From Thermoplasmata archaeon (GTDB lineage: Archaea > Thermoplasmatota > Thermoplasmata > GCA-020350865): DNA of 64,000 nucleotides. The translations under genes and the position numbers were made by a program. Within the stretch, counting starts at the first letter, position 1. Each line of letters opens with the position of its first letter. This document shows positions 48,187 to 51,828 of this stretch, piece after piece. Below the pieces are notes generated by a model. That model was not told where the DNA came from and ran no database searches. It saw only the letters and a program-made list of their open reading frames with translations. The stretch covers positions 279,672-343,671 of the forward strand of contig CP070751.1 in the NCBI GenBank assembly GCA_020348445.1, written 5' to 3'.

Positions 48187-49056
48187 TTGGCTGCAAAGAG
48201 AACCTCAAGAACCACGGCACGAAAGGTGAAGGACAAGTGGCGGTCCAAGGAGTGGTACAGGATTCTTGCCCCTGACATGTTCAACAATGCCCAGATAGCG
48301 GAGACCCTAAGCGATGAAAAGGAGAAATTGATAGGCAGAGTAACAGAGGTCACTATGCAGGATCTGACTGGCGATTTCTCGAAGATGCACATAAAACTTC
48401 AATTTAAGATCAATGATGTGAGCGGTTTCGATGCCCATACACATTTTATTGGCCATACACTGACAAGCGACTACATCAGGAGATTGACAAGAAGAAAACA
48501 TTCGAAAACAGATGGTGTATTTGATGTGCTAACAAAAGACAAGGCCCTGGTTCGGGTTAAGCCAATGGCAGTCACTGAAAAGAGAATCCAAGTATCCCAG
48601 CAGCAGGCTATTCGCGGCATCATGAGGAATATCATAGATAAGGAAGCAAAAAAGCGAATGAGTAGCGAATTCATTAAGGAGCTGCTCTCAGGTAATATCT
48701 CAAAAAATATATTGAAGGCCTGCAAGCCCATATATCCGTTGAAGAGGGTGGAGATACGCAAATCCGAGGTTCTTAGATTGGCTACAGAGAAGGTTGTGGA
48801 GGCACCAACCGAACCAAAGGCCGAGGTAGAGGCCGAGAAGACAATCGAGGAAGATGTAATGGAAGTTGTTGGGGAAGAACTTGAGGAAGAAAAACCGATT
48901 GAGAAAAAAGAGATACCTCCACCTCCGCCTCCCCCGCCCCCTCCAGAAGAACAGGAAACCAAGGTTACCCCCAAGATACCACCTCCTCAGGAAGATGAGG
49001 TTTCCGAGGTAGAGGAAGAATTACCAAAAAAAGTCGAGAAAATTACAGAGGATTAA
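48187..49056 (+). CDS. rps3ae: 30S ribosomal protein S3Ae (eS1) with long acidic/Pro-rich C-terminal extension
   Basis: KVKDKWRSKEWY.I.AP..F, GRV.EVT..DLTGDFSK.H.KL.F, IYPLKRVEIRK.EV. TTG start with AAGGAG SD. Confidence 0.95.
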   Translation: MAAKRTSRTTARKVKDKWRSKEWYRILAPDMFNNAQIAETLSDEKEKLIGRVTEVTMQDLTGDFSKMHIKLQFKINDVSGFDAHTHFIGHTLTSDYIRRLTRRKHSKTDGVFDVLTKDKALVRVKPMAVTEKRIQVSQQQAIRGIMRNIIDKEAKKRMSSEFIKELLSGNISKNILKACKPIYPLKRVEIRKSEVLRLATEKVVEAPTEPKAEVEAEKTIEEDVMEVVGEELEEEKPIEKKEIPPPPPPPPPPEEQETKVTPKIPPPQEDEVSEVEEELPKKVEKITED

Positions 49057-49097: not shown

Positions 49098-49241
49098 GCC
49101 GAGGTGGCTCAGCCTGGTGGAGCGTCGGACTCATAGGGTTGCGCTTTGCGCTCCAAGGCACCTTTCTGGGAAATCCGGAGGTCACGGGTTCAAAAACAGG
49201 CCAGTTAAGTGCTGACACTGTTGAAATCCCCGTCCTCGGCA
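49098..49241 (+). tRNA. tRNA-Met(CAU), elongator type, with two BHB introns (37/38: 49136-49172; 59/60: 49195-49227)
   Basis: Acceptor GCCGAGG/CCTCGGC-A, D arm GCTC/GAGC, anticodon stem TCGGA/TCCGG with CAT at 49132-49134, T stem ACGGG/CCCGT. Both introns fold into bulge-helix-bulge motifs. No encoded CCA. Oligo-T follows. Confidence 0.92.
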
Positions 49242-49248
49242 CTTTTTT
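49187..49248 (+). repeat. 62-bp direct repeat, copy 1 (tRNA 3' end with T-loop intron and terminator Ts)
   Basis: GGTTCAAAAACAGG...CCTCGGCACTTTTTT, identical to 49894-49955. Confidence 0.95.
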
Positions 49249-49299
49249 CTAATTCACCATAAATTATAATTAAGCAGAAATCAATAGATATAGGACCAT

Positions 49300-49881
49300 A
49301 TGGAAGGGGTAATAATGAGTTTGATTGACCAATTGAAAGGAAATGGAAACGAGGCTCCTACAAAAGTGTATGCTTTGGTTTTTGTTATATCTTTTATCGT
49401 GTTAGCAGGAAATATTATCATTCTCTGGGTGAACTTTCTTCCTCAAATGCAGGATGCTGCCGAAGAAACAGAAGAGATAATAGAGGATTCAGAGGAGGGT
49501 AATCCAATAATACGAGCAGATGCAATTCCCAAGATTAGATTTGTTTATATTCTTTACTTGATATGTTTTGGAATATTGGATAGCGTCCTCGCCCTAATGC
49601 TTTGGAGAAACCAGGTTCCGAAAAGCCAGGAACCTGTTATTAAGGCACTGGCAAATACCTATGTCTTTGTAAGGTTATTCAATATTTTTATTATAACTAT
49701 GTTATCAATAATCGTTCTAGTTGGATCAGATTATTTGCTAGCTTTAAATCTTTTATATGTATCAATTTTGTTCTTTTCGATTGTAAGTTTATTTTATATC
49801 ATTTACCTTAAGAGGAAGATTTTAAGCGAAAAAATGGATAATGAGATCACGTTTAAAATCCCTGATGAAGTAACCCCTTGA
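49300..49881 (+). CDS. Hypothetical membrane protein (~4 TM), sole cargo between the repeats
   Basis: 193-aa ORF with four hydrophobic stretches. Likely start ATG 49315. Confidence 0.6.
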   Translation: MEGVIMSLIDQLKGNGNEAPTKVYALVFVISFIVLAGNIIILWVNFLPQMQDAAEETEEIIEDSEEGNPIIRADAIPKIRFVYILYLICFGILDSVLALMLWRNQVPKSQEPVIKALANTYVFVRLFNIFIITMLSIIVLVGSDYLLALNLLYVSILFFSIVSLFYIIYLKRKILSEKMDNEITFKIPDEVTP

Positions 49882-49893
49882 TATGGTATTCCA

Positions 49894-49955
49894 GGTTCAA
49901 AAACAGGCCAGTTAAGTGCTGACACTGTTGAAATCCCCGTCCTCGGCACTTTTTT
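49894..49955 (+). repeat. 62-bp direct repeat, copy 2 (att-like duplicate of tRNA 3' end)
   Basis: Identical to 49187-49248, offset 707 bp. Confidence 0.95.
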
Positions 49956-50150
49956 TATCTGTGTTTCTTATAAAGCTCCTAATCTGATTAATCATTCATT
50001 ATTTTTTAACCAAAGGATCCATTAAATTAATACGAAAGTATAATTTTATTTCCCTATAGCATGATTATCTTCAAGATATATGTATAATAAGGAAAAATAT
50101 TTATACATTAAGGCCATATATGTTACTAATGGAACATTGAGGAAGATAAA

Positions 50151-50858
50151 ATGAGCCTTTCGGATAGATATGAATACTATCCAACAATTTCTCAGAAGAA
50201 TAATGATGATTTTATTTTTAAAGGAAGAATATTTACCGACAATTCAAATATAATAAATCTTAAACTACACCGAAAACTTTCCTTAAAAATTTTTTGGATA
50301 TATTTTTTCATTTTCAATGTGCCTTTTTTTATGCTAATTATTTTATTAAGTCACCCCGAATACGGAATAATTACAAATTATAAACCGGAAATATTTATCC
50401 CATTCTATATTTTTTTATGCTTAATTATCGGGACCGAATGTGGTTTTTTAGTAATTAACAGATTAAAGCAATCATTGAAAATTATACAAAATAATGTTTG
50501 CGATACAAAATGGAATGTTATAGTAAGAGACAAGTTGTATTTCAAACGCCCACCATATCAAGTTCATGAAATCTTGATTTCAAGTCTTTCTTCATTTCAC
50601 TGGAATATTCTATACGAAAAAAAGTATTACAAAGGTGTTCCGATTTTTGTAAAGATCATAGGTGTTACAAATCTTGGATTATTTTTGAATCCTGATATTT
50701 TCATTATCTGTGTATGTAAGAATGAGAGAGGTTATACAACAGTTGATTGTTCAATTAGGCCGCATTCAAATGCATCTGAACTTGGATCTTACAGGTGCAA
50801 AAAACGCCTTGAAAAGCTAATGAACTGCTTGAGTTCCTGCGAGGATATCAGGTATTGA
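50151..50858 (+). CDS. Hypothetical AT-rich membrane protein
   Basis: 235-aa ORF with two hydrophobic segments, visibly AT-richer than its neighbours. Confidence 0.5.
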   Translation: MSLSDRYEYYPTISQKNNDDFIFKGRIFTDNSNIINLKLHRKLSLKIFWIYFFIFNVPFFMLIILLSHPEYGIITNYKPEIFIPFYIFLCLIIGTECGFLVINRLKQSLKIIQNNVCDTKWNVIVRDKLYFKRPPYQVHEILISSLSSFHWNILYEKKYYKGVPIFVKIIGVTNLGLFLNPDIFIICVCKNERGYTTVDCSIRPHSNASELGSYRCKKRLEKLMNCLSSCEDIRY

Positions 50859-50874
50859 GCTTTCAAGAAGTTTA

Positions 50875-51828
50875 TTAGTCCCTCACTCCTTCCTCACAGA
50901 GCGTAACCACGGCTTCTCCATCCGGAAGACTGGGGGAATCCACAAGCCTGCAAATTCTTTTTCCGCCCTTGCTTTTTCTCATGTAGATTCTGAATGTTGC
51001 TGTGTGTCCCACGATATGACCGCCGATGGGTCTTGTTGGGTCGCCGAAAAACGCATCAGGTTTGGCGGAAACCTGGTTCGTAACGAGAATCACAGCGTTG
51101 TTCAAATCAGCGAACCTCTGAAGGTCGTGCATGTGCCTGTTCAGCTTCTGCTGGCGCTCGGCCAATGCTCCCCTGCCGATGTACTCTGCACGAAAATGAG
51201 CAGTAAGTGAATCCACAATAAGAAGTTTAACAGGAAATTCCTTTGCAAGGGCCTTTGCCCGGTCCATCAAAAGCATCTGATGATGGGAATTAAATGCCCT
51301 TGCGACATGTACATTTGTTAAGGCTTCCTGGGGATCCAAATCCAGGGCTCCTGCGATCTGTACTATCCTTTCAGGTCTGAAGGTGTTCTCTGTATCTATC
51401 ATCAAGGCATGACCTCCCAGACCGCCCTGATCCTCTGGTAACTGGACATTCACAGCCAGCTGATGCGCAATCTGGGTTTTTCCGGAGCCAAACTCCCCAT
51501 AAAGCTCGATAATCGCCTGGCTCTCAAATCCTCCGCCCAACAGTTCATCCAGGGCCTTTACTCCGGATGTGAGCTTTCCAACTGCCTTTCTTCTCTCAAG
51601 GAGTGCATCCCCTGTTTCGAAGTTTCCGATATCTGCCTCCCTCTTTGCTAGGTTGATGATTTTATTGGCAGTGGCCTCGCCTATCTCCGCCATCTCAGCA
51701 AGGTTCTTTGGAGACTCCACGGCTATGGTCATCAGGTCCGAGTAACCTGCCTCTCTCAATTTTTCCGCAGTTGCTGGTCCTACTCCTGGCAACTCATCTA
51801 TTTTCATTTCTTCGGTCATTTTATTCAC
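50875..51828 (-). CDS. radA: DNA repair and recombination protein RadA
   Basis: Hh[11 protein letters not shown], Walker [45 protein letters not shown]. No intein. Confidence 0.97.

Follow-up and report, generated by a model that had tools for sequence, protein, structure and literature searches.

A perfect second copy of an intron-containing tRNA-Met tail in a hypervariable chromosomal slot of a Thermoplasmata archaeon

A DNA stretch of 64,000 nucleotides from a Thermoplasmata archaeon (GTDB lineage Archaea; Thermoplasmatota; Thermoplasmata; GCA-020350865), comprising positions 279,672 to 343,671 of the forward strand of contig CP070751.1 in NCBI GenBank assembly GCA_020348445.1, was analyzed and is called the window below; all unlabeled coordinates refer to it. 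The locus in question contains a tRNA-Met(CAT) gene with two bulge–helix–bulge (BHB) introns, a gene for a small membrane protein with four transmembrane (TM) segments (4-TM gene), and a second copy of the tRNA tail behind that gene. The original tail within the tRNA gene and its copy are termed R1 and R2. The gene order is HdrD-like (−), eS1/S3Ae (+), tRNA-Met, 4-TM gene, R2, orf235, radA (−), and purP (−), and the interval between tRNA-Met and radA is referred to as the slot. Table 1 lists the features.

Table 1. Features of the tRNA-Met/radA locus
Feature	Position	Strand	Description
Ribosomal protein eS1 (S3Ae)	48187..49056	+	Pfam PF01015, E 9.8e-71; conserved left neighbor of tRNA-Met across the class
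tRNA-Met(CAT), two BHB introns	49098..49241	+	exons 49098-49135, 49173-49194, and 49228-49241; read by hand
Intron 1	49136..49172	+	canonical position 37/38, 37 nt; helix CTCA/TGGG, bulges TAG and AAA
R1	49187..49248	+	tRNA-Met tail: G52 (G52-G53 of the T stem), entire intron 2, 14-nt 3' exon, CTTTTTT
Intron 2	49195..49227	+	T-loop position 59/60, 33 nt; helix TTCA/TGAA, bulges AAA and ATC
Bracketed segment	49249..49893	+	645 bp, 33% GC (0.332); contains a promoter and the membrane-protein gene
4-TM gene	49300..49881	+	small membrane protein, 193 amino acids; 4 TM segments by reading of hydrophobic stretches
R2	49894..49955	+	perfect second tRNA-tail copy; begins 12 nt past the 4-TM gene stop
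Genome-specific block	49956..50874	+	28% GC (0.283), from R2 to the radA stop; absent here in all relatives recovered
orf235	50151..50858	+	ORFan, several hydrophobic stretches, no Pfam hit
radA (Rad51/RadA recombinase)	50875..51828	−	Pfam PF08423, E 8e-89; conserved right border of the slot in the genus

A repeat search of the window identified R1 and R2 as a direct repeat with 62/62 identity, their starts lying 707 nt apart. In the window, a 30-mer from the repeat has two occurrences, compared with 0 expected from 100 shuffles, and BLAST against the complete 5.16-Mb genome returned exactly these two copies and no match longer than 17 nt elsewhere. An initial annotation had described a perfect 62-bp repeat running from G52–G53 through intron 2 to the acceptor end and terminator and enclosing about 650 bp with one membrane-protein gene and no integrase. 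The repeat search bears out this description, and the enclosed 645 bp hold a single open reading frame and no integrase by Pfam. The geometry is of the att type, with a complete tRNA-Met at one border and the tail repeat at the other, and the GC content is 0.33 in the bracketed segment, 0.28 in the block to the right of R2, and 0.45–0.50 in the flanking genes. The bracketed segment has no second copy elsewhere in the genome, and a third or degenerate tail copy, sought to the right of orf235 and inside the bracketed segment, did not rise above shuffled sequences. A local tandem duplication, named in the initial annotation as the alternative, does not describe the locus: only the 62 nt recur, the whole unit is not repeated head to tail, the flanks are dissimilar, and orf235 is unrelated to the bracketed gene. 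R2 is also not the 3' half of a split tRNA, as neither a partner 5' half nor a complementary leader is present. As an RNA, R2 would still fold the intron hairpin, and the outer BHB helix is lost. The only T run after the 4-TM gene is the end of R2, which could act as the terminator of that gene. Here, we propose that R2 is a young duplication of the genome's own tRNA-Met tail, which marks an insertion or stacking border in a hypervariable slot; the evidence set out below leans modestly toward this explanation.

ARAGORN and Rfam did not detect the tRNA-Met at 49098–49241 because of its two introns. Brute-force splicing combined with ARAGORN was uninformative, and the hand reading was checked against intron-less orthologues. 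Both introns show the strict 3-4-3 BHB motif. The inner helix of intron 2 is ACAG/CTGT, and the T stem is ACGGG/CCCGT. With two 3-nt bulges and a 4-bp helix, intron 2 has the form expected of an archaeal BHB intron, and its predicted splicing would restore a canonical tRNA; a cut after the second base of each bulge gives the T loop TTCAAAC, identical to that of the orthologues in other families, which lack intron 2. No paralogue of intron 2 is present in its own genome, and there is therefore no evidence of intron transposition. Within 49189–49227, the 3' end of intron 2 (GTTGAAAT) resembles GTTCAAA, the start of the T loop ahead of the intron, apart from a single base. Speculatively, intron 2 may have originated as a 24-nt hairpin whose insertion created a short target duplication.

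The age of intron 2 was compared with that of the copy among relatives, where G000 denotes the own genome, G001–G004 four congeners, and L-numbers the recovered loci and contigs. Each of the eight genus-level tRNA-Met genes recovered (one from the own genome, four from congeners, and three from metagenome contigs) carries intron 2, regardless of whether an insert or a second tail follows. The orthologous tRNA genes of seven other families, one of them in the same order, lack intron 2 and keep intron 1, which is found in every orthologue of the class examined. In a scan of 185,579 species genomes, the intron-bearing tail pattern was found only in four congeners. The exons are identical across the eight genus sequences, and the alignment shows an intron 2 interior that varies at many sites; by hand count, G000 and G001 differ at 6 of the 28 leading positions of the intron. 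R2 matches its own R1 at every one of the variable intron sites in this eight-sequence alignment. The template was therefore the resident gene or that of a conspecific, and the match excludes a foreign attP of separate history. The copying, or the last homogenization, was recent, because a neutral copy of genus age would be decayed. The argument of the initial annotation that perfect identity points to a recent event is thus upheld, as is its proposal that recombination took place on an intron-containing site, the entire intron 2 lying within the repeat. The copy appears to have arisen long after intron 2 became fixed in the genus, with the intron as a passenger in the copied tail.

The initial annotation had gone further and read the locus as a snapshot of intron gain or spread through an integrative element, whose attP would have carried intron 2 and installed it in the tRNA gene. 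This part of its reading was not supported. All eight genus-level genes have the intron, with or without an insert or a second tail, and delivery is contradicted because a single crossover would leave the intron in one copy only, whereas here both copies carry the identical species-specific intron. Intron 2 is not linked to the element across relatives: G004 has it without any insert, and G001, G003, L041, L060, and L062 combine the 4-TM gene and intron 2 with a single tail, so that all six carry the intron with no sign of integration. Delivery is also unsupported because the membrane-protein gene is no newcomer, being located behind the tRNA or beside radA in almost every relative. In favor of delivery, neither intron 2 nor the 4-TM cassette was found outside the genus, a model of such delivery has been published (PMC3293823), and in a hand alignment the tail remnant of G002 described below fits an intron-less T arm nearly as well as the intron junction. 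At best, these points would place the event at the base of the genus, where it cannot be read from R1 and R2, and we regard delivery by an attP as extremely improbable.

The synteny of the relatives indicates what is old and what is new in the slot. RadA is conserved at 88–91% amino acid identity in full-length or near-full-length matches (G001–G004, L060, and L063). In G004, the tRNA has a single tail and is followed by a small gene (−) and radA. In G001, L041, and L060, the order is tRNA, 4-TM gene, and radA, with overlapping convergent stop codons (from gene coordinates in L060 and read from the sequence in G001 and L041). A small (−) gene lies between the 4-TM gene and radA in G003, L062, and a second contig with the same protein (P0006). 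G002 has three tandem 4-TM genes, and a 33-nt tail remnant of 88% identity follows the first (0 of 1000 shuffles reached its score). No tail remnant that beats shuffles was found after the 4-TM genes of G001, G003, L041, L060, L062, L063, and L064 or after copies 2 and 3 of G002. R2 and orf235 occur only in the own genome among the relatives recovered. The slot is thus hypervariable, holding zero to three 4-TM genes followed by nothing, a small (−) gene, a PIN-MazE pair, or orf235. From this synteny, the variable place extends from the 4-TM gene stop to the radA stop, and the genome-specific novelty spans 49882–50874. As to the empty sites in relatives for which the initial annotation had called, G004 offers the single tail, and the closest relatives keep the 4-TM gene and lack only R2 and orf235.

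Some of these loci show further peculiarities. The C-terminus of the first 4-TM copy of G002 (..LFKIPSSALFF..; L035:3840-3905) is encoded by the decayed tRNA-tail copy, and part of a tRNA gene has therefore turned coding. The FKIPDE C-terminus of the 4-TM gene was considered as a decayed att site, an idea that was dropped because no tail remnant rose above shuffles, except in copy 1 of G002. The PIN-MazE (VapBC-like) toxin–antitoxin pair is located between the 4-TM gene and radA in L063 (2470-3187) and in two P0009 contigs. In L063, the 4-TM gene is preceded by a large surface-protein gene instead of tRNA-Met.

The 4-TM homologues in the same slot of relatives share 36–77% identity with the protein studied here. 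The values are 36–49% for the congener copies and 65–77% for a second group of contigs, compared with 82–94% throughout for RadA, PurP, and HdrD. The ranking departs from that of the flanks: L063 has 65% with a PurP of 87%, and G001 has 49% with a PurP of 89%. This discordance suggests that 4-TM alleles have been exchanged or differentially retained, and the 4-TM gene reads as a fast-evolving resident of the tRNA-Met/radA slot.

The same comparisons bear on two other accounts of R2. The 707-bp unit of 4-TM gene and tail copy could be an integrase-less mobile cassette that was recently excised and re-integrated at the tRNA-Met tail by an integrase acting in trans, with orf235 as an older insert pushed outward. 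The classical order of intact tRNA, insert, and tail fragment fits this account, as do the discordant 4-TM alleles and the tyrosine recombinases of the congeners, and in G002 the sole tail remnant comes after the 4-TM copy nearest the tRNA, where it would lie if new units were added beside the tRNA. The closest 4-TM alleles (65–77%; L060, L062, and L041), however, occupy the same place with the same promoter junction and no second tail, the identical introns demand a conspecific donor, no intact integrase was found in the genome, and neither a circle nor an attP was found in the search of viral contigs. We consider the mobile cassette unlikely. Alternatively, R2 may be an old attR left when the 4-TM gene arrived in the genus ancestor, its identity to the tRNA kept in this lineage by repeated gene conversion or by selection as a terminator or 3' end. 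The restriction of both intron 2 and the 4-TM gene to the genus, the decayed remnant at the equivalent place in G002 (after the first 4-TM copy), and the T run offered by R2 alone are in line with such an origin. Against it, six other 4-TM loci have no significant remnant, conversion would have to restore 62/62 identity with sharp edges, and the outer BHB helix is not kept in R2, so that no RNA role is evident. An attR of this age is quite improbable in our judgment.

Copies of tRNA ends are a recurrent feature of this genome. With the same BLAST settings, 67 ARAGORN tRNA calls were compared with 1500 random 125-nt segments; some of the calls are probably false because the intron option was on. 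Local direct partial copies were found for 11 of the 67 tRNA queries and for 6 of the 1500 random controls. tRNA-Ser(GCU) has a perfect 41-nt tail copy, and tRNA-Gln and tRNA-Thr have 34-nt copies from the T arm to the trailer. At tRNA-Thr(UGU) (L056:175-450), the 34-nt copies, from T loop to trailer, bracket 277 nt that belong to a family of structured non-coding repeats of about 250 nt. This repeat family has six matches in the genome, five besides that of tRNA-Thr (99–246 nt; L057, L058, and L059), and two of these five are again flanked by repeats that begin with GGTTC or a T-loop-like sequence. Hairpin modules lie directly behind tRNA-Ala(UGC), Ala(CGC), Trp, His, Leu(UAA), and Leu(CAG), with 1–3 units each (L048:175-420 and L049–L053). 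Their shared core of about 45 nt is TGTTCGAG..TTATAATTG..TCTTAAG..CTCGAACA, and the last 9–14 bases of the adjacent tRNA recur in the outer arms, inverted in one and direct in the other. Neither the hairpin modules nor the 250-nt repeat matched an Rfam family, and the bracketed 645-bp segment has no similarity to the hairpin-module family. Given this excess of copies at tRNA ends, the 62-nt repeat represents one case, with a gene as cargo, of a process that recurs there in this lineage. More generally, the lineage might have an active mechanism that needs no resident integrase and copies the tRNA tail, from T loop to terminator, whenever cassettes or hairpins are inserted or stacked; the intron in the 62-nt copy would then point to the gene or the unspliced transcript, not the mature tRNA, as the template. 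We deem this general form rather unlikely.

Three further observations were made on such copies. A perfect duplication of about 64 nt, located 138 nt upstream of tRNA-Phe(GAA) (G000:C1:3438735-3439000), brackets a GC-rich hairpin; this copy consists of the leader and the first 21 nt of the gene, with the length of about 64 nt read by hand and BLAST alignments of 46 and 44 nt. In L058, the 250-nt repeat is positioned between two copies of the hairpin-module end. In G013, which belongs to another family and has a tRNA-Met without intron 2, a GC-rich hairpin and a second CTGTCCTCGGCAC tail copy are found 94 nt downstream (L009:1590-1710).

The duplication of the own tail, our preferred explanation, can be pictured as follows. 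Two low-GC cassettes, the 4-TM gene and orf235, lie behind tRNA-Met on either side of the tail copy. They would have been brought together by recombination at the tail, between conspecific variants of the locus or between sister chromosomes. The catalyst may be a tyrosine integrase acting in trans, which is possible because the congeners have 2–7 tyrosine-recombinase family matches each, many of them in open frames of 346–407 amino acids, or the process that leaves tail copies behind many tRNA genes here. Once present, the perfect 62-bp repeats would let the 4-TM gene loop out, giving a site like that of G004, and unequal exchange between them would amplify the unit to an array like that of G002. 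As to which part came last, the closest relatives share the promoter junction of the 4-TM gene and lack R2 and orf235, which suggests that R2 and orf235 are the newcomers.

Several points weigh against this explanation. The order of events can be read the other way, as the classical geometry and the array of G002 favor the 4-TM gene as the newcomer. No conspecific strain was recovered, and neither an empty nor an unstacked allele of the species was seen; exact-protein look-ups with the own 4-TM product and RadA gave no match and hence no conspecific alternative allele. No integrase was found in or near the locus (none by Pfam among nine neighboring open reading frames), and only two integrase fragments were detected genome-wide. 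These C-terminal fragments, the sole tyrosine-integrase matches of the genome (G000:C1:1863587-1864591 and 2412539-2412823), adjoin tRNA-Leu(UAA) and a second tRNA-Met gene, and the first is also beside an rve-type transposase open reading frame. The SSV-type integrase family PF16795 is absent from the own genome, and a search for reverse transcriptases was negative. Because the assembly has N runs, genes could be hidden. The search among viral sequences that the initial annotation had proposed, which covered 2.9 million viral contigs and no plasmid collection, gave 0 matches to the tail pattern. Finally, the junction of the 4-TM gene with R2 is supported by one assembly only.

The last point raises the question of an assembly chimera, in which two haplotypes, one with tRNA and 4-TM gene and one with tRNA and orf235, were joined and the real chromosomes have no duplication. 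The genome is a scaffolded metagenome-assembled genome with N runs, and the exact 4-TM product is unrecorded in the contig collection. In the independent Logan assembly of SRR14739665, a contig has its start 225 nt ahead of orf235, at a point 30 nt short of the end of R2; the same sample also has a contig with S3Ae. A break at this point fits the assembly graph, of presumably k = 31, if the tail end has two continuations. Both continuations thus exist in SRR14739665, though not necessarily on one molecule. However, collapse of a repeat would not create the passage from the 3' end of the 4-TM gene into GGTTCAAAA, which requires reads across it, a repeat of 62 nt lies below the final k-mer sizes and read lengths in common use, and similar perfect tail copies are present at other tRNA genes of the same genome. 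A chimera is very improbable on these grounds.

The locus can be compared with known systems. SSV1, with a 44-bp repeat of the 3' end of tRNA-Arg, and the pNOB8-type plasmids are archaeal integrative elements at tRNA genes (PMC3293823). As in their att repeats, a direct repeat of the downstream part of the tRNA is found here with the intact tRNA on one side, a tail fragment on the other, and a lower-GC interior. Unlike those elements, the R1/R2 locus has no integrase, whole or partitioned, its bracketed interior measures only 645 bp, no free element was found, the bracketed gene is resident in relatives, and the repeat holds a complete BHB intron matching the fast-evolving one of the host. Sugahara et al. 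(2012) proposed intron gain via an intron-bearing attP at the tRNA-Thr of Caldiarchaeum subterraneum, where the upstream fragment is of the one-intron type and the new intron is only in the rebuilt gene, the insert includes a gene for a recombinase, and alleles with and without the intron occur in one population (PMC3293823). Both cases present a multi-intron archaeal tRNA gene beside its own partial copy and inserted DNA, but in the tRNA-Met case the identical 33-nt intron is in both copies and in every relative of the genus, intron-less alleles are known only from other families, and there is no recombinase; these are not the features of such a snapshot. The copy also resembles the hairpin modules of the same genome, in which the tail of the neighboring tRNA is copied behind the gene with no integrase in sight, but R2 is 62 nt long, contains an intron, and flanks protein-coding genes. 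Cis-mobilizable elements (CIMEs) of streptococci are integrase-less segments flanked by attL and attR at tRNA or other att sites, and they derive from accretion of integrative elements. An integrase-less segment between two att-type repeats and the stacking of units at one site are shared with CIMEs, which are bacterial and have been mobilized experimentally, whereas the 4-TM segment would be mobile by inference only. An integrase-less, att-like tail repeat at a tRNA gene is of a known kind; the variation here is that it encloses a complete T-loop intron.

Taken as a whole, the initial annotation held for an att-like, recent recombination at an intron-bearing site and failed for intron gain or spread through an element. 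Because a complete T-loop BHB intron sits inside a perfect att-like repeat, the locus is a clean, dated counter-example to the notion, in its simple form, that introns protect the 3' end of a tRNA gene from recombination. The species-specific intron serves as a clock, by which the copy is recent and home-made, and the analysis removes the attractive reading of intron delivery. It also adds a gene-carrying case to the tail copies behind many Thermoplasmata tRNA genes. Experimentally, the locus should be easy to follow: the predicted loop-out or circle measures 707 bp, the repeat 62 bp, and there is just one cargo gene, which derives from a pilus platform protein.

The cargo gene more likely starts at 49315, just downstream of GGAAGGGG, which gives a protein of 188 amino acids. 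The protein has no Pfam hit, even at E up to 1. BLASTP aligned it with residues 275–360 of a 384-amino-acid T2SSF protein (E 9e-11, 35% identity, 86 amino acids). The shared part is the N-terminal half of the 4-TM protein and the C-terminal TM hairpin of the T2SSF/TadC-like platform protein, beyond the domain. As the hairpin alone is shared and no T2SSF Pfam match is present, the 4-TM protein is a fragment-derived paralogue and not a platform protein. The own genome has a pilus-type operon T2SSF-T2SSF-T2SSE (L042:3-3864), in which T2SSE is a PilB3-like ATPase, and the C-terminal TM hairpin of the second platform protein of this operon is the apparent source of the 4-TM gene family.

For orf235, a search of 5.8 billion proteins returned only orf235 itself, and one homologue of 33% identity was found in G002, in an ordinary chromosomal context elsewhere. 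An origin of orf235 as a diverged 4-TM copy was ruled out, the sequences being unrelated, and its membership in a recognizable mobile element found no support in the homologue and protein searches.

To the left of the slot, 11 of the 15 outgroup loci searched have S3Ae upstream of tRNA-Met. At its C-terminus, the eS1/S3Ae protein is extended by about 85 amino acids (48800–49056), a part that is rich in Glu, Lys, and Pro and includes a run of about ten prolines; the alignment with its relatives is confined to the first 200–214 residues. Elsewhere on the chromosome, ARAGORN placed about 25 tRNA genes within 3 kb (G000:C1:4640570-4643566, −), an arrangement unusual for an archaeal chromosome.

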